From contig JAYTCQ010000354.1 in NCBI GenBank assembly GCA_043736395.1, positions 3,723 through 67,722 on the forward strand: a DNA stretch of 64,000 bases, written 5' to 3'. The stretch is from Blastocatellia bacterium (lineage in GTDB: Bacteria; Acidobacteriota; Blastocatellia; RBC074). Below the pieces are notes generated by a model. It saw only the letters and a list, made by a program, of their open reading frames with translations, was not told the origin of the DNA and did not search any database. Shown here one piece after another: positions 29,008-50,928 of the stretch; within the stretch, counting starts at the first letter, position 1, and every line of letters starts with the position of its first letter. The translations under genes and the position numbers were made by a program.

Positions 29008-29337
29008 TTATGCTGTTGCACTATTTTTTTGCAGAAGGGCTTCAAGCCTTTCCATGCGCTCCTCAATTTTCGTGAGAGTGCTCGCGTCGGCAGGCGGTAA
29101 TGATTTTTGCGCACTAAAAATAGGATGATTCACCCACCAGTCCATTCCCATTTCCTGGGCTTTATCAACGGAGCAAATCACCAGGCGAATTTGAATGGTA
29201 AGCAGTTCAACATCCGCCAAATTTACTTTTATGTCACCGGCAATCACGATGCCTTTGTCCAGAACACGTTCCAGAACATCAGCGAGAGTTGAACTGTTGA
29301 CGGCGTGCGTCATTGTACTATTTCGTGGTTGTATCAT
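29008..29337 (-). CDS. gvpJ: Gas vesicle protein, GvpA/J/M family (GvpJ-like with C-terminal extension).
   Basis: 'LADVLERVLDKGIVIAGDIKVNLADVELLTIQIRLVICSV' hallmark GvpA-family core; GGAG RBS. Confidence 0.8.
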   Translation of the reverse strand: MIQPRNSTMTHAVNSSTLADVLERVLDKGIVIAGDIKVNLADVELLTIQIRLVICSVDKAQEMGMDWWVNHPIFSAQKSLPPADASTLTKIEERMERLEALLQKNSATA

Positions 29338-29360
29338 TTTTTCTCCTGCACCTTTTGAGG

Positions 29361-29723
29361 CTAAAGCAATTTTCCGAGTGGTCCCAAATCCAGATTGAGG
29401 TCTTCTGGTTGTAATCCAAATTCCAAACGCAGCTTGTCAATTTCCTGCGTCTGCCGCATCAACGCTACGCCAAGGCGTTCAATACTTTCATCGTCTAATG
29501 TTTCCGATTCGATGCGCCGAATGGCTTGTCGTTCTAACAATTCATGCAAAAGCTTGATGATCGTTAACGCCAATCGTCCCAGCCCATTTTTCACATTTTT
29601 TTCGTCAAGTTCCAATCGTGAATTGCTGCCCAGACCCGAAAATAAATTCTTATCTGCCTGCAAAATACGAGCAAAGTCGCTAACAGTATCGGCGGTAGCA
29701 ATTGATGATATTTCAGAATTCAT
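29361..29723 (-). CDS. gvpK: Gas vesicle protein K.
   Basis: 'GLGRLALTIIKLLHELLERQAIRRIE' conserved GvpK core. Confidence 0.8.
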   Translation of the reverse strand: MNSEISSIATADTVSDFARILQADKNLFSGLGSNSRLELDEKNVKNGLGRLALTIIKLLHELLERQAIRRIESETLDDESIERLGVALMRQTQEIDKLRLEFGLQPEDLNLDLGPLGKLL

Positions 29724-29735
29724 TTGTCTTTTCCT

Positions 29736-29969
29736 TTACTCAATGGTTGATTGCACCTTTAAGGCTCGACCACCTTCAACTGAAGTCAGAACCAGTTGTA
29801 ATCCCAAGTAAATCAAATCTACATTCGCGACTGAAATTGTGACTTCGCCCACCACGACTGCGCCTTTATTCAATACACGATCAAGCACTTCGCACAGTGA
29901 AACATTTCCCTGCTCGTTCAGTGCTAAATTCGAAGCCAAAGCCGTTGTGTTGTAATTTTCAAAATTCAT
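29736..29969 (-). CDS. Small GvpA-family protein (GvpS/GvpM-like second structural homolog).
   Basis: 'SLCEVLDRVLNKGAVVVGEVTISVANVDLIYLGLQLVLTSVE'; its start abuts the ArsA-like stop codon. Confidence 0.7.
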   Translation of the reverse strand: MNFENYNTTALASNLALNEQGNVSLCEVLDRVLNKGAVVVGEVTISVANVDLIYLGLQLVLTSVEGGRALKVQSTIE

Positions 29970-31913
29970 TTATCGCCCCGCCGTTCGAACCATTTCGTAT
30001 TGATAAAGTGCTTTTCCCAATTCGCCAAGTTTTGACAAGCCGCGCAATTCACCCTGACGCGGAATGACGGCTTGCGGAATTCTTGGGAATGACACTTGAA
30101 ACTTCGTCTTAACAATCGCCTCGCGTGCGGCTAATGCATGGCACAAAGTGCAATCCTGTTGCGGTGTGGTCAGGTTAATAAAAATTCCTCCCACCGTGAT
30201 TTTCATTTGCTCGCACGATGCCAGCAAATCTCGTGTTTCGGCGTACGCCACTTCGGTTGGAATGCTCACGACAGAAATTCGCGCCTTGGTTCCATCAGCT
30301 AACAAAGTGCGTAATTTCTTAAGGTTTTTCGACATTTCTACTAATAACTGTGAGAGTCGCGGCAGGCGCAGCATGTTGCGATACTTCAGGAAAACACCAA
30401 AAAAAGCCTTCAACCATTGATCTATCAAAGTGGGCATTTCCAGCAAACGGATTAAATGTCCGGTAGGAGCCGTGTCGAGAACTACCACATCGTATTTCCC
30501 TGATTGATGCAGCTCAATCACGCGCAACAACGCCATCACTTCATCCAGTCCCGGCGGAGCCAGATCAATCATTCGTTCCATGACTTCGCGGTCAAAAGTG
30601 AAGTCGAGGTTTTGCATCGCAGCACTCAGGAATTTTTTCAGATCGTGGGCGTATTCTTTTTGCAAAACTTCAAATTCTGCATTCGCGTTAATTTCGAGAA
30701 CGCTCAAATTTGGGGTCACTGCTACGATTTCTGCGCCGATAGGTAGCGCAAAACAATCTGCCAATGAATGCGCCGGATCCGTCGAACATAGCAAAACTTT
30801 TTTGCCTTCTGTTTGTGCAAGTCTCATGGCTGTTGCACACGCCAGTGTAGTCTTTCCGACTCCGCCTTTCCCCGCAAAAAATAACAGGTTGGCTTTCGGC
30901 ACAGGTACGTTGCTGAAGGTGGGAAAATCATTAACCGAAGCCTTCACGCTCACCACCTCCGGCATCAATGTTAGCGGTTCCACGTCATCCCAAAAATGTT
31001 CGAGTGAATTCACTCCTCGCATTTCTTCCGGCTGCAATTCTGAGCGCCAGAAATTATATTCTTCATAACTTTGCAGCATTGCGCGAATTTCAGAATTTTG
31101 ACGCGCGTACGCTTCACGACAAGTCGCACAATCATTGTGTGGAAATAACTGATTGACGACGATCTCACTTACCGGGATTTGCAGGCGTTGTAAGGCCGTG
31201 AGTAAATCTTTTGTCTCATTGATGCTCAAAGCTTCTGCCAGCATTACTGGTACGAAGCGACACAGCTGTACATCACACAATAAGGCTTCCAGATTTTTGA
31301 CAGAGGAAGTGATCGTCAACAAAAATTGATCTAGTTCATCGCCGTAATAATTGCCACTGAACAATTTTTTCATGTAGCGATTTTTGGCTAACAGCGCATC
31401 CAGCATTCCTAACCAGCGATGCAATAATTCAGGCATTCCAAGCAATCGCAGCGTGTGCCCAGTTGGCGCAGTGTCTACAATCACGCAATCATAATTTTCA
31501 GCCGAAACCCATTCTGAGATTTCCAGAAATGCCATCAATTCATCTAAGCCAGGCAACGAAAGTTCCAGAAATTGATTGATGTCTGAATCGTCCAGAAACG
31601 TTCCGCGCTTGGCAATTTCGCGCAAATGTTCGGCGTGAAGTGCTTTGAATTTTGTCAGACATTCCTGTGCGTTGAGTTCAATGATCGTCAAATTTGACGG
31701 GATCATGCTCGCCTGTTCTCCCAATCCATCCATCAAAGAATGCGCTGGATCGGATGAAGCAATCAGGTATTTTTTTTCAGGAAAAGTTTTTGCGAGATAC
31801 AGCGCAGTCGCCAAAGCAGACGTAGTTTTCCCAACTCCACCTTTGCCACCAAAAAGCAGTAGGTGTAAATTTTGATCGTTGAGAAATGCAGGGCGCATTG
31901 GCTGATTAATCAT
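29970..31913 (-). CDS. Tandem two-domain ArsA/Get3-family P-loop ATPase embedded in the gvp cluster.
   Basis: Two halves, each with 'GGKGGVGKTT' deviant Walker A (LLLFGGKGGVGKTTSA; LLFFAGKGGVGKTTLA) and 'DTAPTGH' switch motifs. Each half carries a CxxC pair (DCATC; DCTLC) in the position of metal/client-binding Cys in Get3/ArsA. Confidence 0.8.
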   Translation of the reverse strand: MINQPMRPAFLNDQNLHLLLFGGKGGVGKTTSALATALYLAKTFPEKKYLIASSDPAHSLMDGLGEQASMIPSNLTIIELNAQECLTKFKALHAEHLREIAKRGTFLDDSDINQFLELSLPGLDELMAFLEISEWVSAENYDCVIVDTAPTGHTLRLLGMPELLHRWLGMLDALLAKNRYMKKLFSGNYYGDELDQFLLTITSSVKNLEALLCDVQLCRFVPVMLAEALSINETKDLLTALQRLQIPVSEIVVNQLFPHNDCATCREAYARQNSEIRAMLQSYEEYNFWRSELQPEEMRGVNSLEHFWDDVEPLTLMPEVVSVKASVNDFPTFSNVPVPKANLLFFAGKGGVGKTTLACATAMRLAQTEGKKVLLCSTDPAHSLADCFALPIGAEIVAVTPNLSVLEINANAEFEVLQKEYAHDLKKFLSAAMQNLDFTFDREVMERMIDLAPPGLDEVMALLRVIELHQSGKYDVVVLDTAPTGHLIRLLEMPTLIDQWLKAFFGVFLKYRNMLRLPRLSQLLVEMSKNLKKLRTLLADGTKARISVVSIPTEVAYAETRDLLASCEQMKITVGGIFINLTTPQQDCTLCHALAAREAIVKTKFQVSFPRIPQAVIPRQGELRGLSKLGELGKALYQYEMVRTAGR

Positions 31914-31931
31914 ATTTTGCGCTCATCAAAA

Positions 31932-32333
31932 TCATTCTTCATCACTGTCATCTTCATCTTCTTCATTTTCTTCGTCGTCATCGTCTTCTACCTCTTCATC
32001 CTCTTCATCACTGTCGTCTTCGTCTTCATCGTCGTCCTCATCGTCATCGTCACCATCATCTTCGTCTTCGTCATCGTCGTCCTCTTCATCGCCCTCATCA
32101 TTCGCCGCAGACTCTTCCAATGCGCTCAATCGCTCTAACAATACTGCTTCCTGTTCATCAAATTCGTCTTCGGTGATTTGTCCTGTTTCGAGCATCATGT
32201 ACAGCTCGCTCAGCGCAGTAGTAATTTGCTCAGAGGCGTTGGTTATTTCCTGCTCTGCCGCATTGCGGATTTCTCCCAGCAGCCAAAAAAAGCCGTGCAT
32301 GGGAGCCAGAAAAATGTCATCAACTAAAAACAC
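31932..32333 (-). CDS. gvpG: Gas vesicle protein G with a ~55-residue poly-Asp/Glu C-terminal tail.
   Basis: 'FLAPMHGFFWLLGEI...ITEDEFDEQEAVLLERL' fits the GvpG pattern (LL.P..G..W.GE ... I.EEEF..E..LL). Predicted GTG start (alternative in-frame ATG 11 codons later). Tail 'DEGDEEDDDDEDEDDGDDDDEDDDEDEDDSDEEDEEVEDDDDEENEEDEDDSDEE'. Confidence 0.65.
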   Translation of the reverse strand: MFLVDDIFLAPMHGFFWLLGEIRNAAEQEITNASEQITTALSELYMMLETGQITEDEFDEQEAVLLERLSALEESAANDEGDEEDDDDEDEDDGDDDDEDDDEDEDDSDEEDEEVEDDDDEENEEDEDDSDEE

Positions 32334-32362
32334 AAAAAACTTCTCGACGATTTCACAAACAA

Positions 32363-33127
32363 CTAAAATTCCAGGGCGACTTCGACAAAGTTATACGGCG
32401 CCCACGGCCCGTTAAAATCAAAGGCAAAGTTGTCATCAAACAATTCCGCTGCCGCATAAACCTGTTGCTCAAAGTTTGCTAACGAAGACCGATCCACCAG
32501 GCAAACCAGATTCATCACTTCGCGTTCCGTCCGGCAACGATTCACTTTGATTTCCGCGCAGGAATTCGTGAGTGCGTCCTCGACCTTCTCCGTGAACTCT
32601 TCCCTATCACTCGCATGCAATTGCTCAAAGAGGCGTCCAACAGCCAATTTGTCATCCTGACGCGGTTCACCTTCGCCACTGAATAAACGATCCCGCGCAG
32701 CCAGTAATTCAGGATGTAAATTGACGAAATATTCAAAAATATTCGGCACGTCCCACGTGACGCGAACGCCCATTTCTACTTTGTCTGCCACGCGTTCTAA
32801 TTGCGAAGCGAGTGCCTCGGAATTTTTTGTGAGTACTTCTTCGACGGCTTCCTGTGAATTCGCAGCGACGCCGAAAGCCATTGGTAAAACGGACAAATTT
32901 TCAGCTAATAATTTTTTCAGGACTTCCTGATGTGCGGCGAGATTTTTTCGCTGCGGCAGGATTTTTTCGCCGGAAGAATCACTCACCACAGCGGCGAATT
33001 TGCCGTTGGAAATTGTGTAGACGTGCTGACCGTTTAGACCACAATTTCCTAATTCCAGGTGGTCTTGGGCGGCGATGACGGCGTAAAGATATTTAGAACT
33101 GCGAGCGGCGGCGGCTTTGACTGACAT
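32363..33127 (-). CDS. Gas vesicle protein GvpF/L family (paralog 1).
   Basis: 'KYLYAVIAA' N-terminus and C-terminal 'NGPWAPYNFV' hallmark of GvpF/L; start at internal ATG with GGAG. Confidence 0.8.
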   Translation of the reverse strand: MSVKAAAARSSKYLYAVIAAQDHLELGNCGLNGQHVYTISNGKFAAVVSDSSGEKILPQRKNLAAHQEVLKKLLAENLSVLPMAFGVAANSQEAVEEVLTKNSEALASQLERVADKVEMGVRVTWDVPNIFEYFVNLHPELLAARDRLFSGEGEPRQDDKLAVGRLFEQLHASDREEFTEKVEDALTNSCAEIKVNRCRTEREVMNLVCLVDRSSLANFEQQVYAAAELFDDNFAFDFNGPWAPYNFVEVALEF

Positions 33128-33291
33128 GGTTTTGGGTCTCCTGTAAAACCTGCCACACAAACGGTCAGAACAAAGCGAAAACAAGGAAGGAAAACTGAAT
33201 GAATCAAAAGTTGCTCTGTTACTGAATCGCGGTGGCTCGGCGAATTTGGGTTACTGCTACTAACAACAATTTCTGTTGTTACGATCAAAAA

Positions 33292-33504
33292 TTATTTTGC
33301 TTCGGTGGCATTTCGGACTTGAGCATTCCATCGCTCAATCAACCACCAACGCCTTATTTCACGGTGCTGTAAATCAATTTCAGCATTACTATTTTCCTGC
33401 TCAGCCAGATGATCCTGCGGGACACCCGTACTCGTAGGAACCGCGCGAAACGATTTGCGATGACGATTGGTTTTGATGTGCGATGCGGTTTTTAATTTCA
33501 GCAT
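33292..33504 (-). CDS. Hypothetical small Arg/Trp-rich protein inside the gvp cluster.
   Basis: ATG start; translationally coupled to the upstream small gene (stop 33507). No known motifs. Confidence 0.3.
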   Translation of the reverse strand: MLKLKTASHIKTNRHRKSFRAVPTSTGVPQDHLAEQENSNAEIDLQHREIRRWWLIERWNAQVRNATEAK

Positions 33505-33506
33505 GA

Positions 33507-33830
33507 TTAGTATTTCAGCTTGAATGAATTATTTGCAGTGGCACTCACGCTTTTGGCGATTTGCTTGCTTCCTTCGACTGGAAGATCGTAATCGGCTGCC
33601 GCCAATTGTTTGAGGATGACAGCTTTTTCCGCATCAATTTCGCGGAAGCGTGTCCGCAATTCCTGCAATCGTTCCATCGCGCTGTCTTTTTCTTTGTTGC
33701 GACGGACTTTCTCCATTTCAAGTGCCGTCAATTTCATAAATGCTTTGTATGGACTAAAGCTACTTTCGTTACGATTGGAATGTGTACGAATGCTTTGTAA
33801 CCCGCGTAGCGTACTTTGACGTGATTTCAT
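33507..33830 (-). CDS. Hypothetical small coiled-coil protein inside the gvp cluster.
   Basis: Strong AGGAGG RBS; heptad-like 'MERLQELRTRFREIDAEKAVILKQL'. Confidence 0.45.
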   Translation of the reverse strand: MKSRQSTLRGLQSIRTHSNRNESSFSPYKAFMKLTALEMEKVRRNKEKDSAMERLQELRTRFREIDAEKAVILKQLAAADYDLPVEGSKQIAKSVSATANNSFKLKY

Positions 33831-33843
33831 TTCAGCTTTCCTC

Positions 33844-34800
33844 CTAACGACAAAATTTATGAATTAAAACATCAACTGTTTTGGGAGTAATGGTTTTCGA
33901 AGCTTTCTCGCCTTTGCCACCATCACGGCTTAGCACATCACGACAAACCCAACGGAACAATTCGTCATTGATCCGCGCATGCGAATCACGTGCAGCAATC
34001 ACGCGTGCAATCGCAATCGCAGCGCGAATTGTTGGATACGTTTGATCGTTACCGAGTGCTCGCAGTTCGTCTATGATGTTAATGATGCTGGTGGCGTCTT
34101 CGAGTTCAATGCCTGACTTCGCCATCGTGACAGCGATTTCTGTTTCGCGGTCATAATGTCCCAAATCAATGGTAATCATTCGATCTAACAACGCATCCTG
34201 CGTTTTATGGACACCGGCGTATTCTTCAGGATTTGAGGTGAAAATTGCGTGAAATTCTGGATGAACATTCATGTAGCCTTCGCCTGAGCGACGCAGCTTC
34301 GGCAAGTTCAAAATGCGCTCCGACAATACGCTGAGCAAAGCATTATTGGCTTCGGCTGGCGAGCGATTAAATTCATCGTAAATTAAAGTGTTACCATCTC
34401 GACAGGCCATCGTCAGGCGGCTGTCTACCCAATAACTTTTGACTTCATCCTGCGTTTTCACGACAGAATGAATAAAATTATCCACTAACGTAGAGCGACG
34501 ATAACCGGAGTCACGACCAATTAAATCAGCCGAACCGAATTCATCATCACCGTGAATCAGTGTGACCGGACGCGCTAATTGCGCGGCAACATGAAAAGCA
34601 AGCGTCGTCTTACCTGTTCCCGCCGGTCCGGCAAAATGTACCGGAAATCCAGCTTGCAAATAAGCGAGTGCTCGCTCAACGACGTGCGCAATTTGTGGTG
34701 TACTCACAAAACCTGAACTCGGTTCAAGTTGAAGATTTTCGTTCTCAGACTTCGTCCTTATCAAATCAGGAGAAGTTGCTGTAGAGGCGGATGCAGACAT
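33844..34800 (-). CDS. gvpN: Gas vesicle protein N (AAA+ ATPase of CbbQ/NirQ/GvpN family).
   Basis: Walker A 'GPAGTGKTT'; 'TLIYDEFNRS' Walker B region; length and order typical of GvpN. Confidence 0.85.
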   Translation of the reverse strand: MSASASTATSPDLIRTKSENENLQLEPSSGFVSTPQIAHVVERALAYLQAGFPVHFAGPAGTGKTTLAFHVAAQLARPVTLIHGDDEFGSADLIGRDSGYRRSTLVDNFIHSVVKTQDEVKSYWVDSRLTMACRDGNTLIYDEFNRSPAEANNALLSVLSERILNLPKLRRSGEGYMNVHPEFHAIFTSNPEEYAGVHKTQDALLDRMITIDLGHYDRETEIAVTMAKSGIELEDATSIINIIDELRALGNDQTYPTIRAAIAIARVIAARDSHARINDELFRWVCRDVLSRDGGKGEKASKTITPKTVDVLIHKFCR

Positions 34801-34855
34801 GCGTGGTTCTCTTGGTTGTTCTTTTCAGGCAAATATCCTGCAAAAAAATTTAGGC

Positions 34856-35605
34856 TTAGCCGGCTTTTGCGGCAGCCAATTCATGTTCAAATTCGCGGCG
34901 AAGCTTTGCGATAGTTTCGCCCTGAACATCTTCGATATGCTTGGAGACGACTTCAGCGGCCATTCTGCTGGCTTGTTCAGCGGCAGCGCGGCTAGCTTCT
35001 TCCAACCGCTTTCCAGCTTCGTTGGTTACGCGTTCGACGGCTTGCTCAACTTTGCGCGCTTTTTCAGCTCTGAGCACGGCATCAGCTTTCGCTTCTTCTA
35101 CAGCTTTCGAAGCTAACGTTGCTCTGGTTTCCGAAAGGGATTTTCCTTTAGTACGTGGCGCAGCGGCGGCAGCTTTGGCAACTGGCGCAGTTACAGCAAC
35201 TGGTCTGCTTGTGGCAGGCAAGGCAGGCTGATTCCACATCGCGCGCGCACCTGCCAGATCTTCCTGATTTTCTTCGCGGATGGCAGAAACTTCACTCTTC
35301 AATTCAGAGACAAATTCTTGCCGATCTTCTTTCGTAGTGACCGCCATTTCTGCGTGAGCAACTCGAAAGTCTTCCTGCATCGTCGCGACCTCACCAACGA
35401 GATTGGTGACGAATTCGACCCGCTCCGATTTTGATTTTTCAGCCATCTCGGCATGGTCAACACGAAAGCCTTCTTGCATCGTGACGACTTCTGCTTTTAA
35501 TTCCTGATTTTCAGCCGACAGTCTTTCGATTAACTCTCCGCGTTCGACACGCAAGTCGGCCATTTCTTCAACCAGCCGTTTCATATCATCGGTCAAGCGT
35601 CCCAT
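34856..35605 (-). CDS. GvpC-like gas-vesicle outer-layer protein candidate (33-residue tandem repeats plus Ala/Lys-rich coiled-coil tail).
   Basis: Two adjacent 33-aa repeats 'EVVTMQEGFRVDHAEMAEKSKSERVEFVTNLVG' / 'EVATMQEDFRVAHAEMAVTTKEDRQEFVSELKS'. Sits immediately downstream of gvpA, as gvpC does in cyanobacteria. Confidence 0.5.
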   Translation of the reverse strand: MGRLTDDMKRLVEEMADLRVERGELIERLSAENQELKAEVVTMQEGFRVDHAEMAEKSKSERVEFVTNLVGEVATMQEDFRVAHAEMAVTTKEDRQEFVSELKSEVSAIREENQEDLAGARAMWNQPALPATSRPVAVTAPVAKAAAAAPRTKGKSLSETRATLASKAVEEAKADAVLRAEKARKVEQAVERVTNEAGKRLEEASRAAAEQASRMAAEVVSKHIEDVQGETIAKLRREFEHELAAAKAG

Positions 35606-35659
35606 TCGATTTGCTCCTTAACTTGCACTGATTCAGGCAAAATCTTTGCTGCGTAAATT

Positions 35660-35702
35660 AGTTAAAAAAATTCCATTGACGGGAAGGAGCAAAGCTCCCT
35701 CG
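35660..35702 (-). terminator. Possible partial terminator/attenuator between gvpA and the gvpC-like gene.
   Basis: On the minus strand: GAGGGAGC-uuug-GCUCCuUC hairpin followed about 10 nt later by UUUUUUU; non-canonical spacing. Confidence 0.3.
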
Positions 35703-35733
35703 CCGACAAAGGAAATAAAAACGTTCAGTCGTT

Positions 35734-35952
35734 TTAAGCCGGTGCTGCTGCGCTGGAAGTTAATCCAATAGCTTCGGCGTACTTTAAATAAGTTTCGACC
35801 GAGGCAATCACGACACGTGCTTCAACTGACAGTAATTCAATACCGACGAGCGAGACCTTAACCCAAGCATCAATGACGATACCTTTATCAAGAATACGAT
35901 CTACGACTTCTGCCAGACTCGATGAATCCGTTGACTTCGCTATTTTAGCCAT
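35734..35952 (-). CDS. gvpA: Gas vesicle structural protein A.
   Basis: '[64 protein letters not shown]', near-canonical GvpA. Start at internal ATG with AAGGAG RBS; the ORF-track N-extension is rejected. Confidence 0.9.
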
Positions 35953-36145
35953 ATTTTCTCCTTTATGATTTTCATACTCCGGGTGGGAAAAGCTGAACAC
36001 ATCAGAAGGATGAGAAAGTCATCCCAACCACAGCTTGCTAAATCCTACTTGCAGATTTAGTGCCACAATCGGAAGGACTACAAAATATTTTTTCTGGGAG
36101 TTTTTTTGATAGCGTTGATAGACAAATAACTATTACTTCTATGTG

Positions 36146-36862
36146 CTATTTGAGTTTAGGCAGAAGCATCGCAGCAGGTAAATTTTCTGTCATCACAAAG
36201 TTGTAAGGAGGCCACGGCCCACTCGCTGAAAGCTTAACAGATTGCGGCACTATCAGGTGTCGCAACTTGTCATTCCAGGCTTCAATTTCCGTGCGTCGAA
36301 GCAAAAAATATTGCGAACATAACCAGCCATCTTCGAACCTTTTTACTTCTGTTTTTTGACGTTTGAATAACCCATCCAAAGGCGCACAGACCTCTGTCAT
36401 CATTGCCTGAAATTCGGTTGAAGGATCTTCGTAATGCCGCCGCCGTGCCGCCAGATATGCTCGACCTGAAGACACGGGTTCCGGTTCACTGACAACAATA
36501 TTCCCAATTGCTTGCGGTACAGAAATCAAAAATCGAAGCCCCATTTCAACACAATCTTCCAGTTCATCAAGGAGCGTTTCATACTGCGCCTGATGCTTCG
36601 TCAGGAAATTCATGAGTTGCGCTTCGTTATCAAACAGACAGCCGTACCGCATCGGAATCACTGTGTGTTCACGATGAAAATCTGCCACGACTTTTTCAAA
36701 TGATAATAATTGCTCAATGCTTGGAGTCGCAGAATTTTCACAGGCAGAAATAATCGCCGTCAGATTATTATTCGAGATAAAAAATACTTCTGTAGACACA
36801 GAATTCACGGAATGGATTTTCTTTTCAGAGTTGCGCAACACAGCGTAGAGCAGCAGTTTCAT
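36146..36862 (-). CDS. Gas vesicle protein GvpF/L family (paralog 2).
   Basis: 'MKLLLYAVLR' ... C-terminal 'SGPWPPYNFV'; ATGA overlap with the upstream paralog. Confidence 0.8.
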   Translation of the reverse strand: MKLLLYAVLRNSEKKIHSVNSVSTEVFFISNNNLTAIISACENSATPSIEQLLSFEKVVADFHREHTVIPMRYGCLFDNEAQLMNFLTKHQAQYETLLDELEDCVEMGLRFLISVPQAIGNIVVSEPEPVSSGRAYLAARRRHYEDPSTEFQAMMTEVCAPLDGLFKRQKTEVKRFEDGWLCSQYFLLRRTEIEAWNDKLRHLIVPQSVKLSASGPWPPYNFVMTENLPAAMLLPKLK

Positions 36863-37671
36863 GCACTTTGCTCCTTGGCTAAATTTGGAGAAAAACTATA
36901 CGGCGGCCACGCTCCGGACATCGTAAAAACAAAGCCTTTTTCTGCGTATTTCGAATTGATGCTATCAACGCGCAGTCGAAAATCTTCGCGAGATTCTTGT
37001 GGAATTAAAAATGCCCAATTCAAAATTGCTTCAAGTTCGTCGTCAGAATTCGTAACTTTTCGTGCTCGAAAATCAACGGCGGATTGACTCAGCTCCTGCG
37101 CAATTTGTACGCAGATTTCTTGTATCCATTGATTTAATTCCTGCTCTACCGCCGCCTTGATTTTTTGCTCTTGAAAATAGCGCAGCCCCGGAGAAATTGC
37201 GCCGAGCTGTTCGTCCTGTTCAGCTAATTTTTGATCCAACAATCGCTGTCTGGCTGCGACACGATTGATGCTTCCCTTGACTGAAAATTCCTGCTTGTTA
37301 TTGATGTGATGCAGGAATCCAAAAATTGTTCCGTGTTGTGTTTGAAGAAAATCTGTGACGCCGGAAGCCGTAGAAAATAACGTACCAAATCGCGCTGGTA
37401 AAACGGGAGCTTGACGCAGTTGCTCTTCGATGACTGCTTCGTGTTGCAAGGCTCGCGGAGCAATCCAGTTCAAATCTTTCATCAATTCTTCCGCTTCCGC
37501 ACCAATGAAATCAGTCAGTGGAACTTCGCTAACAATTGCGGTCAACGAATTGTATTGAAGAGCGAATAAAGGGCTGCCATCATCAAAGCCCACGCCTTGA
37601 ACTTCCGGCAGCTCTTTCGTCAGAGAAATACAAAAAAGATAAATTGCTTTGGAGGGTTGGTTGTTCGTCAT
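36859..37671 (-). CDS. Gas vesicle protein GvpF/L family (paralog 3).
   Basis: 'KAIYLFCISL' ... C-terminal 'SGAWPPYSFS'. Confidence 0.8.
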   Translation of the reverse strand: MTNNQPSKAIYLFCISLTKELPEVQGVGFDDGSPLFALQYNSLTAIVSEVPLTDFIGAEAEELMKDLNWIAPRALQHEAVIEEQLRQAPVLPARFGTLFSTASGVTDFLQTQHGTIFGFLHHINNKQEFSVKGSINRVAARQRLLDQKLAEQDEQLGAISPGLRYFQEQKIKAAVEQELNQWIQEICVQIAQELSQSAVDFRARKVTNSDDELEAILNWAFLIPQESREDFRLRVDSINSKYAEKGFVFTMSGAWPPYSFSPNLAKEQSA

Positions 37672-37747
37672 AAAATTCAGTTACAAAATGCAGCGGGTAC
37701 TGCACAAGTAACGAGAGTAATTTCTTCCGCGAAGATGGATGAATTTG

Positions 37748-47403: not shown

Positions 47404-48057
47404 TTACTGTTTGAGCTGTGCCTGAATGTCATCCTTACTGGTTCCTTTTTTTACCCAGTTAGGAACTTCATTCAAGCGTTCGCTAAGGCCCAGAACAAAG
47501 GTGCAATTTGCATCGCCGCGCGCTACACATGAAATTTCATGTGCCGCTATTGCAGAATTACTGGCGTGTGAAAACATGCCCGCTAATGCACCTGCTGCCA
47601 AATGATCAATTGGCATTCCTTTGGCGTCGCGTCCGCTTTTGGCAAACACTTCCGCGAAGGGCGTATCCGAAACCTGAGCGTAAATCAAACCTTGTTTGAT
47701 GTTGTTCAGTTCAAAGCTCAACTTGCCCCAGCCTTGCGTTCCCCAGGCTTCAACCAGCGAAGCATGAACATGTGCGGTTGGTAATTCTTCCAACGCTGAA
47801 CCGTAATACGCACTCAGCTCTTTTTCGTAGCGCTGCATTTGTCGGCGTCCCCACCATTCGCCGCATTTGTAGAGCACAACCGGCCACGCCTGCCCGCATT
47901 CATCTTCGAGGCTTTCCAATAAGCCCAGCGTAAATTCAAACGGGAATGCCACCAGGCGCGTACCGCTGCGTGAAGTGATGACGCCTTTTCCAGCGTCTAA
48001 ATCAACGTAGTCAAGATGCGAAAAATAATTCGCTTTCATGGCTGTAGCCAGACTCAT
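47404..48057 (-). CDS. V4R (4-vinyl-reductase-like) domain protein, paralog A.
   Basis: C-terminal 'EISCVARGDANCTFVLG' matches the V4R 'E..C.A.GD..C.F' signature. Start at internal ATG with GGGAGGAA RBS. Paralog of 49234-49899 (the N-terminal 'KANYFSHLDYVDLDAGKG' aligns with 'KHNYYTREDFFNFASDKG'). Confidence 0.6.
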   Translation of the reverse strand: MSLATAMKANYFSHLDYVDLDAGKGVITSRSGTRLVAFPFEFTLGLLESLEDECGQAWPVVLYKCGEWWGRRQMQRYEKELSAYYGSALEELPTAHVHASLVEAWGTQGWGKLSFELNNIKQGLIYAQVSDTPFAEVFAKSGRDAKGMPIDHLAAGALAGMFSHASNSAIAAHEISCVARGDANCTFVLGLSERLNEVPNWVKKGTSKDDIQAQLKQ

Positions 48058-48077
48058 AACGTTTCCTCCCGTACAAA

Positions 48078-48581
48078 TTAATTGGATTGCCCTGCGGCTG
48101 CGGCCTGTTCTTCCGAACACAGCACATCAATCACGACACTGACATATTGATTGATCTCTTCTGCATCTTCGGCACTCATTTCCTGACGTACCAAATCCTG
48201 CACGGTTTCATAAGTGCTGCGGACAAAGTTCGTATCAATGTCCATGGACATGAAGATCGTTTTCAACCAATACAACAACTTTTGACGAAGCATTTCCGGA
48301 TCGCCATTGACCATCGCCAAGGCGCAGTACCGTAAAACCAGCGTCACATCACGCATACCTTTTTCGGCAGCTTGAGGATGTTTTTGCGGAAAGTCAGGGA
48401 ATTTTTCAAATGACTTATCCACCGTTGCCGCCACGATATTTTTTTCCTTCTCTTCCAATCGTTGCATGATGGCGAGGCGACGTTCATACGCACGTGCAGT
48501 CTCGATGATGGTGTTATTTTCTTCAGGGGTGAAGTACCGGCCTTCGGCACTTCGCATGATGTCAGCAATTTGTCTATTCAT
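48078..48581 (-). CDS. Phycobiliprotein-fold globin-like protein (phycobilisome-protein family homolog; BBAG-like).
   Basis: 'MNRQIADIMRSAEGRYFTPEENNTIIETARAYERRLAIMQRLEEKEKNIVAATVDKSFEKFPDF...MRDVTLVLRYCALAMVNGDPEMLRQ...SAEDAEEINQYVSVVIDVL' aligns along its whole length with allophycocyanin-alpha-type sequences ('ARYLSPGELDRIKSF...GERRLRIAQTL.ENRERIVKQA...LF.K.PD...CLRDLDYYLRLVTY...GD...SAEDAAEAGSYFDFVI'). Confidence 0.7.
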   Translation of the reverse strand: MNRQIADIMRSAEGRYFTPEENNTIIETARAYERRLAIMQRLEEKEKNIVAATVDKSFEKFPDFPQKHPQAAEKGMRDVTLVLRYCALAMVNGDPEMLRQKLLYWLKTIFMSMDIDTNFVRSTYETVQDLVRQEMSAEDAEEINQYVSVVIDVLCSEEQAAAAGQSN

Positions 48582-48598
48582 AGATGGCAAAGTCCTTT

Positions 48599-49213
48599 CT
48601 AGGAGCGAGTGTTTCCGCCGTCACTGACAAGAAATTCTTCCAGCAATCCGGCAATATTTAATCCATTTGTATTGATTGAAGGGCTAGGCCATTTGGTCTT
48701 AATTGACTCAAGTGTGTAGCCTTCCTGAGATTTCGATTCTGTCATTGCGGCTGGAGCAGGCGCTTCTTCCACACCATTTCCGCTCAGCCAAGCCAAAAGA
48801 TTTTTCCAGGGTTGCACGGCAAGGCTTAATTGAAGTGCAACACGAACGGTTGAGGTCTCAACATCAGTTGCAGTCGCGAGCGCCGGAGCTGCTACAATTT
48901 CTTCGACAGGTTCTTGATACCCCGACAGAAATTGAAGTGTATCTTTCCAGGGTCTGACCGCTAATGAAAGAGATTTATTATTGATTTTCTTGATGGCCAC
49001 ATCGGTCGCAGCCGCTGAAGAAGCTTCTATGCCAGGTGCAATATCTACACTCAAAGCATGTGCCGGAGCGCCCGCCAGAGCTGCTCCGTCGAGCGAATCA
49101 GATGATAGTGCGGCATCTTTGTTTTTCGCATTATTTTCAGCGGATTCATTACTGCCTTCGCCGACAAAATCTTGCAGGAATGAACCTAGTGTTTGCGTGG
49201 GAACTTTTTGCAT
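48599..49213 (-). CDS. Hypothetical protein with two ~33-aa internal repeats (L.LAV.PWK..L.FLSG).
   Basis: 'SLSLAVRPWKDTLQFLSGYQEPVEEIVAAPALA' / 'QLSLAVQPWKNLLAWLSGNGVEEAPAPAA'; strong GGAGGTGA RBS. Confidence 0.4.
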   Translation of the reverse strand: MQKVPTQTLGSFLQDFVGEGSNESAENNAKNKDAALSSDSLDGAALAGAPAHALSVDIAPGIEASSAAATDVAIKKINNKSLSLAVRPWKDTLQFLSGYQEPVEEIVAAPALATATDVETSTVRVALQLSLAVQPWKNLLAWLSGNGVEEAPAPAAMTESKSQEGYTLESIKTKWPSPSINTNGLNIAGLLEEFLVSDGGNTRS

Positions 49214-49233
49214 AATGAGTCTTCACCTCCGGT

Positions 49234-49899
49234 TCACTCTGAAATTTTTTCGATGATTTCGGTCGCGGAAGCGCCTTCACGCAGCCAGAATTCTGCCGCA
49301 TCAATACGATTGCCTGAACCAATAATGAATTTGCAGAAATCCTCGCCCATCGCGTAACACTGCACTTCGATGCCGGAGAGATCGCGCTGTGTCAAATACG
49401 TGAAGACACCTGCGAACATTCCTGCGTAAACGTGGCAAACTGGTTTGCCAACATTGCCCAGGCTTTTCGCAACGGCACTATCGAACAGGTCAATAAAAAT
49501 CATGCCTTGCTTGCGCTGCGAAGTGTTGACCTTCCAAGCTCCCCAGCCTTCAGCCTGTAACGGCCACCACCAGGTTTCCAGAAAGAAATTCGCGTTCATT
49601 TCGCTGAGCTTTTTCCCGAATTCCGCTTCAACCATTGGCACGAAGGTTTTCATGTCCTCCAAGCCCCAGCGAAATCCTGCCTTATACATAATCATCGCCG
49701 AAGCGTCGCCGACTTCTTCTTCCAATCCTTGCTGCAATCCAACGACGAAATCTTCTGTCGCCAGAAAAGTACGCAGACCAGCGCGTGTGTGCACAGTGCC
49801 TTTGTCAGAAGCAAAGTTGAAAAAATCTTCGCGGGTATAATAATTATGTTTGATCGGCTGCTGGCCGATGATTACTTCTTGAGCGGTCATTTCGATCAT
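49234..49899 (-). CDS. V4R domain protein, paralog B.
   Basis: C-terminal 'EVQCYAMGEDFCKFIIG' V4R signature; AAGGAG RBS before internal ATG (MIEMTAQEV). Confidence 0.6.
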   Translation of the reverse strand: MIEMTAQEVIIGQQPIKHNYYTREDFFNFASDKGTVHTRAGLRTFLATEDFVVGLQQGLEEEVGDASAMIMYKAGFRWGLEDMKTFVPMVEAEFGKKLSEMNANFFLETWWWPLQAEGWGAWKVNTSQRKQGMIFIDLFDSAVAKSLGNVGKPVCHVYAGMFAGVFTYLTQRDLSGIEVQCYAMGEDFCKFIIGSGNRIDAAEFWLREGASATEIIEKISE

Positions 49900-49942
49900 T
49901 TGCAAAACTCCTTTTGTTATCCACTAAAAAATGTGCGCGGGA

Positions 49943-50428
49943 TTACATAATGCGCTCAGACGCCTGCAACATTTCGAGCACATCCGTCTCGATATTTTTG
50001 AGCGACATGATCACACTGCGCGTAATGATTTTGCCCTGTGGAATCAAGGCGACGCCTGTCACCGGATGAATAATTGTTTCATCCGCACGGCGTCCGATTA
50101 ATGATTCCAGACTGGCGAGCGACTCCAGATAAATCCCTTGTGGGACTTCGACGACACAACCATCGGCAATGATTTTCGCCTGGCAGGCAAGCCGGGAAGC
50201 GGCGGTCGTGCCGGAAATAAGTGACAAGGTTGAGATTTCACGTGGCGTTTGTGGCGATAGCGAGCCATTCCCGTCCAGCACTTTAATGTGGCAGGTGGCA
50301 CATAATCCTTTGCCTCCGCAAACTGCTTTGACGCGACCCTGTGATTGCGCCAGTAACACAGAAATTACATTGGCGCGCGTGAGAACATCTATGTCTGTTC
50401 CAATTGGTTCGATACGGATATTTTTCAT
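49943..50428 (-). CDS. Plant-type [2Fe-2S] ferredoxin with ~70-aa C-terminal extension.
   Basis: 'CGGKGLCATCHIKV ... ACQAKI' Cys ligand pattern (C-x4-C-x2-C ... C); AGGAGG RBS; ATGA overlap with the upstream gene. Confidence 0.75.
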   Translation of the reverse strand: MKNIRIEPIGTDIDVLTRANVISVLLAQSQGRVKAVCGGKGLCATCHIKVLDGNGSLSPQTPREISTLSLISGTTAASRLACQAKIIADGCVVEVPQGIYLESLASLESLIGRRADETIIHPVTGVALIPQGKIITRSVIMSLKNIETDVLEMLQASERIM

Positions 50429-50928
50429 GCTCCGCCTCCTTTAAAAAGATAAAAATTCAGTGCTTCACGTTCAATTGTTTCGGTTGGTTCTGGTGCTTCC
50501 GGCACTTCGTCTTTTTCGCCAGCCAAAATCTGCTGAAGGTAAAGATTCTTAACCAAAAAAGTTGACCTGCCAGTGGGGATTCCATCTTTGGTGAGGAGCG
50601 AAGCGGCTTGGTGATTAAAAGGAATAATTAATTGTGTGGGCAGGTCTACAGCTACCAATAAACTCAGCGAAAGAAACTCTCTTGCCCATTGCGAGGCTAA
50701 CTGGAAATCCTGCGGCTTAGCTGCCAGCTCTGGTTCGCTAACTTGAATCGTTGCCTCTTTAGACACAGAAAAAAGGTCACGCCAGACATCTGGTCGCGTC
50801 TGCCTCCAATTGTTGACGACCGAACTCCGCCCCAAATAGCCAGCAGCCATGAGCGAAATTTCGCTCAACCCTGCGGCAATCTTATCCAGCGTATTAAACT
50901 GTAAAGGGAGATATTCCATCTGTGGCAT
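50425..50928 (-). CDS. Hypothetical protein, first gene of the bilin/gvp locus.
   Basis: 167 aa; no recognisable motif; its stop overlaps the ferredoxin start. Confidence 0.35.
   Translation of the reverse strand: MPQMEYLPLQFNTLDKIAAGLSEISLMAAGYLGRSSVVNNWRQTRPDVWRDLFSVSKEATIQVSEPELAAKPQDFQLASQWAREFLSLSLLVAVDLPTQLIIPFNHQAASLLTKDGIPTGRSTFLVKNLYLQQILAGEKDEVPEAPEPTETIEREALNFYLFKGGGA

Follow-up and report, generated by a model that had tools for sequence, protein, structure and literature searches.

What do two V4R-domain proteins do on either side of a phycobiliprotein-like globin? The window analyzed here, a 64,000-nucleotide stretch of the genome of a Blastocatellia bacterium, contains such an arrangement, and the initial annotation had regarded the two proteins as candidate bilin carriers or chaperones. 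The block comprises the following genes, listed from upstream to downstream:

50425..50928, minus strand: 167-aa protein, first gene of the block; no Pfam match
49943..50428, minus strand: 2Fe-2S ferredoxin-like protein, 161 aa (PF00111, E 3.2e-8)
49234..49899, minus strand: upstream V4R protein, 221 aa; its clade is highly conserved, and it corresponds in position to Synechocystis Slr0144
48599..49213, minus strand: low-complexity repeat protein, 204 aa; no Pfam or NCBIfam match
48078..48581/48590, minus strand: phycobiliprotein-like globin of the BBAG type, 167 aa (PF00502, E 1.5e-25)
47404..48057, minus strand: downstream V4R protein, 217 aa; fast-evolving clade; position of Slr0147
45839..47317, minus strand: Ser/Thr protein kinase, 492 aa (PF00069, E 8e-39)
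45476..45784, minus strand: ABM-domain protein, IsdG/HmuQ-like, 102 aa (PF03992, E 4e-14)
44658..45464, minus strand: ferredoxin-dependent bilin reductase (FDBR), 268 aa (PF05996, E 7.6e-26)
41100..44636, minus strand: coiled-coil protein, 1178 aa, no Pfam match; links the bilin block to gas-vesicle genes

Most neighbouring genes of the block were separated by about 10–90 nt, and the genes for the 167-aa and 2Fe-2S proteins overlapped by 4 nt. A promoter and terminator scan of 39.5–51.5 kb returned fewer sites than shuffled sequences and was uninformative on operon structure. The upstream V4R gene was called at 49234–49899 within an ORF of 49234–49905. The downstream V4R gene likely starts at the ATG at 48057 rather than the GTG at 48120 (ORF 47404–48120), because the latter overlaps the end of the globin gene. 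The V4R genes do bracket a globin gene, the product of which belongs to the Phycobilisome family (PF00502), as initially described. The FDBR that they had been said to flank is present, albeit two genes further downstream rather than directly adjacent.

Conservation of the gene cluster

We compared the window with 80 related genome loci (38 non-cyanobacterial and 42 cyanobacterial) and sorted their V4R ORFs by clade-specific HMMs, each ORF being assigned to the best-scoring family. Both V4R types, one of each, were found in 78 of the 80 loci, as in the window; the absence from syntenic loci that would have spoken against the proposed association was thus not observed. The strict order V4R–globin–V4R was kept in 70/80 loci, spanning cyanobacteria, Myxococcota, Planctomycetota, Sumerlaeota, and Sericytochromatia, and the upstream V4R gene occurred together with a BBAG gene in 79/80. 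The closest loci were labelled as Polyangiaceae and Acidobacteriota metagenome-assembled genomes. Of the 38 non-cyanobacterial loci, 20 had an FDBR gene no more than 10 kb from the V4R pair; none of the 42 cyanobacterial loci did. The cyanobacterial clusters retained the V4R pair with neither FDBR nor heme oxygenase nearby (0/42), and the pair is therefore not tied to local bilin synthesis.

This gene set corresponds to the pre-PcyA clusters, which were reported in 2023 to be ancestral to cyanobacterial pigment systems (Rockwell, Martin, Lagarias, PNAS 2023, PMC10151467). Such clusters comprise an Fe-S protein, two V4R proteins (one each of clades A and B), a bilin-binding globin (BBAG), and an FDBR, with a heme oxygenase in some cases, and they gave rise to the Synechocystis slr0144–slr0149 cluster. 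The window shares with these clusters the Fe-S protein, the two V4R clades, the globin, and the presence of an FDBR, and likewise comes from a non-cyanobacterial genome. It differs from them in having an IsdG-like ABM protein beside the FDBR in place of a canonical heme oxygenase, and a GMRD rather than a CXRD sequence in the globin. The kinase, the Trp-motif repeat protein, and the 167-aa protein recur in related loci (from 27 to most of the 80); the searched text of the 2023 paper does not mention slr0145 and names a kinase in its reference list only (PMC10151467). Very probably, the V4R pair consists of two subunits of the conserved pre-PcyA/BBAG cluster that stem from two different, ancient paralog clades, and the cluster here is the non-cyanobacterial counterpart of Synechocystis slr0144–slr0149. 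The V4R–globin–V4R arrangement itself has already been published (PMC10151467); new here are the clade-asymmetric metal site, the modelled folds of the V4R proteins, the Trp-motif family, the kinase link, the GMRD sequence, the ABM protein, and the gas-vesicle neighbours. A 2026 paper states that little is still known (PMC13326532).

The cyanobacterial loci in our set (L037–L080) show the same core order as the Synechocystis slr0144–slr0152 "pap" operon, in which V4R (Slr0144), a small ORF (Slr0145), the globin, and V4R (Slr0147) follow one another, a 2Fe-2S protein and SpkG, a kinase, being encoded nearby. A part in photosystem assembly or repair has been considered for cyanobacterial clusters of the slr0144 type. 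Unlike the pap operon, the window cluster has bilin-synthesis genes and adjoins gas-vesicle genes. Interactions among Slr0144–Slr0149 have been reported by AP-MS (bioRxiv 10.1101/2020.03.07.980128).

Fold of the V4R paralogs

The two V4R proteins are full-length paralogs (BLASTP 27% identity over 232 aa, E 5e-35), and the profile search that had been suggested placed both above the 31-bit cut-off of Pfam V4R PF02830, with 68.0 bits (E 7.5e-19) for the upstream protein and 34.4 bits (E 2.4e-8) for the downstream protein; their initial description as two paralogous V4R proteins was therefore confirmed. Conservation differed between the clades. The upstream protein retained 53–60% identity across phyla with an invariant Trp cluster, whereas the word filter was passed by only 10 homologs of the downstream protein.

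Structural prediction, performed on monomers, yielded PoxR/MopR sensor-domain, Bet3, and H-NOX-like folds for both proteins, and the fold of the XylR/DmpR/PoxR/MopR sensory domain was recovered over the whole domain. The AF2 model of the downstream protein (pLDDT 74.5) had the same topology as the upstream one and matched MopR in Foldseek with an E value of 2e-10. The ligands of these fold relatives are phenol (PoxR), palmitate (Bet3), and heme (H-NOX). Bet3-family structures among the matches were 2c0j, 2cfh, and 2j3r, and Bet3-family relatives form heterodimers. The N-terminal arms contained N, G, and R positions conserved in both clades, yet were modelled at pLDDT <50; in DmpR, the corresponding arm takes part in a domain swap within the dimer (PMC7264223).

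The pair departs from the sensory (A) domains of PoxR, MopR, and DmpR (XylR family) in several respects. Identity to them was only 12–20%, and these regulators form homodimers, whereas the window encodes two divergent paralogs. Both V4R proteins stand alone at 217–221 aa with no other domain; neither a sigma-54 AAA+ nor a DNA-binding domain is fused to either of them. A search for cofactor-binding or catalytic motifs in the V4R proteins found none.

BchJ, the founding V4R protein, is also stand-alone and tied to tetrapyrrole metabolism, although it is concerned with cyclic Mg-tetrapyrroles and occurs in single copy, unlike the paralog pair here. We rejected a BchJ ortholog: with TIGR02019 (cut-off 74.3 bits), the upstream protein reached only 17 bits and the downstream one was not matched. 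BchJ is not a reductase and has been proposed to be a porphyrin carrier or scaffold (PMC4432870). A vinyl reductase function of the pair was likewise rejected on this literature (PMC4432870).

A predicted metal site conserved in one clade

Next, we focused on the C-terminal "C.A.G(D/E)..C.F" signature. It was present in both proteins, as CYAMGEDFCKF (C183–C191) in the upstream copy and CVARGDANCTF (C198–C206) in the downstream copy, although it was conserved in just one of the two clades. The signature is not a tetrapyrrole-binding motif. Alignment places it on zinc ligands in PoxR and DmpR, and it belongs to the Cys3/Glu metal site that these two regulators have in common with MopR. In the upstream protein, the residues aligned to the PoxR and CapR zinc ligands are C157, E180, C183, and C191, the 26/8 cysteine spacing is that of MopR C155/C181/C189, and the four residues were 100% conserved across the clade. 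The corresponding positions of the downstream protein are D172, E195, C198, and C206, keeping three of the four ligands, and its clade has decayed at these positions (C 34%, Q 77%, C 68%, N 54%). From these alignments, a Cys-Glu-Cys-Cys zinc site is predicted in the upstream protein and three of its four ligands in the downstream one.

A rival account is a redox or oxygen sensor, in which the upstream Cys3/Glu site would act as a metal-thiolate switch as in archaeal MsvR, the heterodimer would pass oxidation state rather than bilin to the ferredoxin and the Ser/Thr kinase, and the globin-bilin would serve as a photosensitiser, a quencher, or a second input. We consider this account rather unlikely, although several observations point to it. 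The best NCBIfam match of both proteins was the V4R part of MsvR, a methanogen redox regulator (E 2e-10 and 1.2e-5), albeit under the cut-off: NF053755 gave 40.8 and 25.1 bits over the C-terminal part only, against 220. This closest curated sequence model has the same three-cysteine spacing, with C206, C232, and C240 of MaMsvR spaced 26/8 like C157, C183, and C191, a triad that was 100% conserved in the upstream clade, and the C206A substitution abolishes redox control in MaMsvR (PMC3729527). A 2Fe-2S protein is always a component of the cluster and a kinase often is, fusions of the two exist, and reference 58 of PMC10151467 deals, by its title, with the phosphorylation of ferredoxin 5 by a SpkG-dependent route in Synechocystis. 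However, the MopR counterpart of this site is considered to hold structural zinc (PMC9556785), the downstream clade has lost the metal site yet is retained everywhere, and the account leaves unexplained why the pair is so strictly associated with a bilin-binding globin. The V4R pair also differs from MsvR in having no helix-turn-helix.

The globin and the interleaved repeat protein

The globin aligned with globins of related loci and scored far under the NCBIfam allophycocyanin cut-offs. It has GMRD where the covalent bilin site CXRD is expected, and the attachment cysteine is thus absent. CVRD was found in the globins of three relatives (L002, L084, and L086), and the CXRD cysteine in only 17 of 106 globins of related loci. 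Of its earlier designation as a bilin-binding globin, the globin family stands, whereas bilin binding, given GMRD in place of CXRD, can only be inferred from relatives. BBAG-1 was poorly chromophorylated when expressed without cluster partners (PMC10151467), and BBAG-3 binds bilins well without any V4R protein.

These properties bear on whether the V4R proteins act enzymatically on bilin, as a vinyl reductase or as a lyase attaching bilin to the globin. Phycobiliproteins need lyases and the cluster contains no known lyase gene, BBAG-1 is poor at bilin self-attachment, and the V4R family name itself suggests an enzyme. Nevertheless, such activity seems very improbable: BchJ is not a vinyl reductase (PMC4432870), its model scored 17 bits against a cut-off of 74.3, the proteins have no cofactor-binding or catalytic motif, and the globin lacks the CXRD cysteine for attachment, as do all but 17 of the 106 related-locus globins.

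The 204-aa protein between the V4R genes contains PW(K)xxLxxLSG twice, along with KWxxxxxxxxGxNIAGLLEEF as a C-terminal motif. The internal repeat attributed to it was verified: LSLAVRPWKDTLQFLSG aligned with LSLAVQPWKNLLAWLSG at a local score of 68, which was reached by 0 of 1000 shuffles (27.5 +/- 5.1). Its orthologs keep the motifs alone and are 38–43% identical, where the neighbouring V4R proteins are 85–92% identical. An ORF of similar style occupies this position in most related loci, and by its motifs the protein is assigned to a fast-evolving, Trp-motif protein family. Iterated phmmer searches from the 204-aa protein found nothing beyond its own lineage, and profile–profile comparison of its family with cyanobacterial and other interleaved ORFs aligned the C-terminal motif alone (probability 2.8%); the case for shared ancestry with the cyanobacterial interleaved ORFs is therefore positional and stylistic rather than demonstrated.

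Two observations would suit a ligand-free Bet3-type scaffold that does no more than organise the complex, or a sensor of some non-tetrapyrrole hydrophobic small molecule: the Trp-motif protein resembles a tether with docking motifs, and characterized V4R sensor domains bind phenols rather than tetrapyrroles. We judge either role of the pair unlikely. The 53–60% identity of the upstream protein across phyla, together with its invariant Trp cluster, is unusually strong for a pure scaffold, and its almost exclusive occurrence with BBAG (79/80 loci) argues against both.

Neighbouring genes

The 2Fe-2S gene lies directly upstream of the upstream V4R gene in the window, and a Fer2 gene held this position relative to the conserved V4R in 44/80 loci. 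Homologs of the 167-aa protein, usually 270–390 aa long, were found upstream of Fer2 in 27/80 loci, 17 of them cyanobacterial. A kinase gene directly followed the downstream V4R gene in 29/80 loci, and Fer2–kinase fusion proteins were present in L035, L074, and L021. Outside the closest relatives, the kinase aligned in the catalytic domain only, so its orthology across phyla rests on position.

The ABM protein is a candidate heme-degrading enzyme in place of a canonical heme oxygenase, judging from its sequence relatives. Its nearest solved structures were TT1380, HmoB, IsdI, and MhuD, and its nearest NCBIfam model was HmuQ, with a score under the cut-off. A tblastn search of the 64-kb window with the heme oxygenase of L084 found no canonical heme oxygenase (best E 1.5). 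The ABM protein was not found in the 80 genome loci; it appeared only in two metagenome contigs (L088 and L089), where the ABM–FDBR pair recurs. The FDBR scored under every NCBIfam PcyA, PebA, and PebB cut-off, and a metagenome scan with it retrieved only three loci. Weak similarity to the 1178-aa protein was found after the FDBR in L089 and L090; the same position is taken by a 1037-aa protein with no Pfam match in L086 and by a 735-aa coiled-coil protein with HATPase_c in L084. Gas-vesicle genes adjoin the cluster in three lineages, including that of the window.

Proposed role of the V4R pair

That the V4R proteins serve as bilin carriers or chaperones is plausible in view of their near-universal co-occurrence with BBAG, their ligand-binder fold, and the carrier or scaffold role suggested for BchJ (PMC4432870). 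We propose a mechanism in which they are paired ligand-binding subunits that handle or report a tetrapyrrole; as a whole it is tentative, possible but somewhat short of probable. Each protein would be a stand-alone ligand-sensing domain rather than an enzyme, equivalent to the N-terminus of PoxR, MopR, and DmpR and with a fold common to Bet3 and heme-binding H-NOX proteins. The paralogs would pair via their conserved N-terminal arms into a heterodimer, and this heterodimer may assemble with the globin, the disordered Trp-motif protein encoded between the V4R genes, and the 2Fe-2S ferredoxin. Function would reside in the upstream protein, which has the invariant Cys3/Glu site and whose Trp-rich core surrounds a hydrophobic pocket; the downstream protein would be a degenerate partner. 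The pair would bind a tetrapyrrole made by the neighbouring ABM protein or heme oxygenase together with the FDBR. It would then either place or keep this molecule in the globin, or signal the state of the molecule to the Ser/Thr kinase encoded next to the pair.

Counted in favor of this mechanism were the paralogy, the published cluster, the 70/80 gene order, the small gaps, the metal site, and the clade asymmetry, as well as the arms, the Bet3 heterodimers, the Slr0144–Slr0149 AP-MS data, the role of BchJ, and the BBAG-1 result. Counted against it were bilin binding by BBAG-3 without V4R, the missing CXRD cysteine of the window globin, and the cyanobacterial V4R pairs without local FDBR or heme oxygenase. 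The phenol cavity of DmpR, at 24–36 cubic angstroms, is far too small for a bilin. The metal/thiol site is the sole strictly conserved chemistry of the pair, and redox sensing fits it at least as well.

Implications for bilin-based systems

Phycocyanobilin synthesis and phycobiliproteins are believed to derive from this cluster, in which no component is more conserved than the upstream V4R protein. For reconstitution, the locus provides a small and seemingly complete set, comprising the candidate heme-degrading ABM protein, FDBR, globin, V4R pair, tether, ferredoxin, and kinase, and experimental handles in the metal/thiol site of one paralog, the docking-type Trp motifs, the kinase link, and a possible buoyancy output. 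A speculative and improbable extension is that the V4R pair, globin, ferredoxin, Trp-motif tether, and kinase form an ancient bilin-based light- or oxygen-sensing complex, unrelated to phytochromes, that controls gas-vesicle buoyancy in several lineages, this one among them. If this were true, phycobiliproteins would descend from signalling proteins that only later took on an antenna role.

Organization and conservation of the V4R gene pair

The V4R pair lies in a co-directional minus-strand gene run with a transcription order from 50928 to 41100.

Genes of the minus-strand block in order of transcription
50425-50928, minus, 167-aa protein of no family, first gene of the block
49943-50428, minus, 2Fe-2S ferredoxin-like protein
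49234-49899, minus, V4R protein (upstream V4R)
48599-49213, minus, 204-aa protein of no family
48078-48581, minus, phycobilisome-family globin
47404-48057, minus, V4R protein (downstream V4R)
45839-47317, minus, Ser/Thr kinase
45476-45784, minus, ABM-domain protein
44658-45464, minus, ferredoxin-dependent bilin reductase (FDBR)
41100-44636, minus, 1178-aa coiled-coil protein without a Pfam match

The initial annotation described two paralogous V4R proteins bracketing the globin gene. In the profile search, the upstream and downstream proteins scored 68 and 34.4 bits against PF02830, above the Pfam gathering score of 31 bits, and they aligned end to end as paralogs (27% identity over 232 residues, E 5e-35). 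The C.A.G(D/E)..C.F string was found in both, and the internal repeat of the interleaved 204-aa protein proved genuine (score 68 versus 27.5 ± 5.1 in shuffles). On identical public contigs the four central genes were called at 221, 204, 167, and 217 aa, which bears out the coordinates proposed initially; one change is needed, a probable start of the downstream V4R gene at 48057. Matches to the whole window were metagenome contigs only.

This V4R-globin arrangement is already published, and the initial annotation re-discovers a known cluster. Pre-PcyA bilin reductases of non-photosynthetic bacteria occur in gene clusters that also encode a pair of V4R proteins (from clades A and B), a bilin-binding globin (BBAG), an Fe-S protein and, in some cases, heme oxygenase (HO); the cyanobacterial slr0144-slr0149 cluster descends from these clusters (Rockwell, Martin, Lagarias, PNAS 2023; PMC10151467). 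In a 2026 follow-up, "HO, BBAG, V4R and FeS" defines the gene context (PMC13446030).

Using the upstream V4R as query, we retrieved 80 genome loci and analyzed them by tblastn and family HMMs. Both V4R types were present in 78 loci, and the order upstream V4R, one or two globins, downstream V4R was found in 70; the genes thus persist in syntenic loci. A 2Fe-2S ferredoxin (Fer2) gene immediately preceded the upstream V4R in 44/80, and FDBR was encoded within 10 kb in 20 of the 38 non-cyanobacterial and none of the 42 cyanobacterial loci. The closest relatives were MAGs labelled Polyangiaceae (81% identity) and Acidobacteriota (75%). Three Sumerlaeota-type loci (L008, L012, L017) carried the V4R genes side by side, followed by a kinase and two globin genes.

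Homologs of the 167-aa protein were located directly upstream of the ferredoxin gene in 27/80 loci, 17 of them cyanobacterial. These are usually 270-390 aa long (e.g., L045:7992-9056 and L084:8288-9466 among the related loci), so the copy in the window is short; close relatives also had a PatA_N-domain protein just upstream. At the other end of the block, the position of the 1178-aa protein after FDBR was occupied in relatives by a 1037-aa protein without Pfam match (L086:14667-17780) or a 735-aa coiled-coil protein with a C-terminal histidine-kinase-type ATPase domain (L084:14814-17021).

Sequence asymmetry and predicted fold of the V4R paralogs

The two V4R paralogs differ in kind. Few cluster proteins were as strongly conserved as the upstream V4R, which had 44 invariant columns and 53-60% identity to homologs from cyanobacteria, Myxococcota, Gemmataceae, Sumerlaeota, and Sericytochromatia. 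The downstream V4R reached only 28-36% identity with most of these partners, and the word filter retained only 10 of its homologs. The ETWWWP and GWGxW motifs were invariant in the upstream clade and missing from the downstream clade.

The Cys signature is part of a four-residue putative metal site, C157, E180, C183, and C191 of the upstream V4R, which HMMER aligned with the PVC...E..C.......C residues of PoxR and CapR/DmpR. These four residues were conserved in 100% of 81 upstream-clade sequences, and the commonest residues in 79 downstream-clade sequences were C (34%), Q (77%), C (68%), and N (54%). The downstream V4R of the window, with D172, E195, C198, and C206, is better preserved at these positions than most members of its clade.

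The spacing of the upstream cysteines, 26 and 8, equals that of the zinc cysteines C155, C181, and C189 of MopR, whose site is called structural (PMC9556785); a zinc site is also described in DmpR (PMC7264223). The same 26/8 spacing occurs in C206, C232, and C240 of MsvR, a redox-sensitive regulator in which C206A abolishes redox control of DNA binding (PMC3729527), and MsvR was the best NCBIfam match of both V4R proteins, albeit sub-threshold. Redox sensing via the Cys3 site is the main rival to a role in tetrapyrrole handling, although we regard it as rather doubtful.

Both V4R models had PoxR/MopR sensor-domain, Bet3, and H-NOX-like folds, with weaker matches to the archaeal V4R protein MJ1460, BcsD, YslB, and the palmitate-binding, heterodimer-forming Bet3/TRAPP subunits. 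The first ~37 residues were of low confidence in both models and contain N, G, and R positions conserved in both clades; the equivalent segment of DmpR is swapped between subunits of a tight dimer (PMC7264223). On these grounds, we propose that the paralogs may form a swapped-arm heterodimer.

The interleaved protein and the kinase

The 204-aa protein evolves very fast, with 38-43% identity where the neighboring V4R shows 85-92%. The surviving motifs were two PW(K/S)xxLxxL(S/A)G copies and a C-terminal (K/R)W...G..IA.LIEEF. Most related loci had an ORF of 85-350 aa at this position; those of cyanobacteria, Gemmataceae, and Myxococcota carried two (S)VxxFFxxVNW copies with an invariant Trp and a C-terminal TLEDFxxxF or FxxFxW motif, and the interleaved proteins of L001 and L087 united both styles. 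Profile comparison did not establish homology across the ORF families (probability 2.8%). The 204-aa protein would fit a disordered tether with docking motifs. We take its position to be that of Synechocystis Slr0145. No mention of slr0145 was found in the main text of PMC10151467 as searched.

A Ser/Thr kinase gene directly followed the downstream V4R in 29/80 loci (11 cyanobacterial and 18 others), and outside close relatives the kinases aligned over the catalytic domain only. Three V4R/globin clusters of Gemmataceae-type genomes (L035:7539-9218, L074:347-2059, L021:5703-7301) encoded an N-terminal 2Fe-2S ferredoxin domain and a Ser/Thr kinase domain in one protein, linking the ferredoxin of the cluster to the kinase. 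In Synechocystis, the corresponding pair is SpkG and ferredoxin 5, with which reference 58 of PMC10151467 deals, and a Synechocystis complexome preprint reports AP-MS support for interactions among Slr0144-Slr0149 (bioRxiv 10.1101/2020.03.07.980128). The V4R pair may belong to a complex with the globin and ferredoxin.

Functional prediction

"Little is known" of what the V4R pair does as of 2026 (PMC13326532), and the initial annotation suggested bilin carriers or chaperones. We tentatively favor accessory tetrapyrrole-handling proteins, of which the upstream V4R would be the working subunit. This model draws on the nearly constant pairing with a bilin-binding globin, on the precedent of BchJ (PMC4432870), and on the poor self-chromophorylation of one BBAG-1 (PMC10151467). 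Against bilin as the ligand, BBAG-3 takes up bilin well without V4R proteins (PMC10151467), the phenol pocket of the closest structures is very small (PMC7264223), and cyanobacterial clusters retain the V4R pair without FDBR or HO nearby. Moreover, the window globin has GMRD at the covalent bilin site, versus CXRD in phycobiliproteins and some BBAGs; relatives had CVRD (L002, L084, L086) or AERD (L001, L087), and the CXRD cysteine occurred in only 17/106 globins of related loci. Another cysteine is located 11 residues past GMRD (LRYC). Next after redox sensing among the rivals comes a scaffold that binds no ligand, or a sensor of some other molecule, which we consider unlikely; an enzymatic role of the pair is very improbable.

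No canonical HO was found in the window. The 102-aa ABM protein adjoins FDBR; relatives had nothing at this position, or a canonical HO elsewhere. Its nearest structures were the heme-degrading IsdG-family proteins TT1380, HmoB, IsdI, and MhuD, and its nearest NCBIfam model was HmuQ, below cut-off. Of the IsdG catalytic triad Asn/Trp/His, the alignment with TT1380 shows Ser at the Asn position and Trp and His kept. The kinase-ABM-FDBR order recurred at ~50-59% identity in two metagenome contigs (ABM at L088:1049-1354 and L089:2421-2726).

A full gas-vesicle gene set (29008-40453, minus) comes immediately after the block and is co-directional with it, comprising three GvpA-like genes, GvpK, GvpG, three GvpL/F, an ArsA-type ATPase, a GvpN-like AAA, a CDC48-type AAA, and Hsp20. 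Gas-vesicle genes were within 10 kb of the V4R cluster in 10/83 loci from about three lineages: relatives of the window (L002:579-7217, L084:27-934, L086:18008-20654), Thermostichus/Synechococcus hot-spring cyanobacteria, and Arthrospira/Limnospira (GvpF-like only). In L016, L022, and L023-L025, they were about 0.7-4 kb upstream of the V4R gene. The papers searched contained no link between gas vesicles and the V4R cluster.

Beyond the published cluster, our analysis adds the metal/redox-site asymmetry of the V4R clades, the family of Trp-motif proteins, the link to a kinase, an ABM protein in place of HO, the absence of the attachment cysteine from the globin, and the gas-vesicle neighborhood, a possible sign of buoyancy controlled by light or oxygen.
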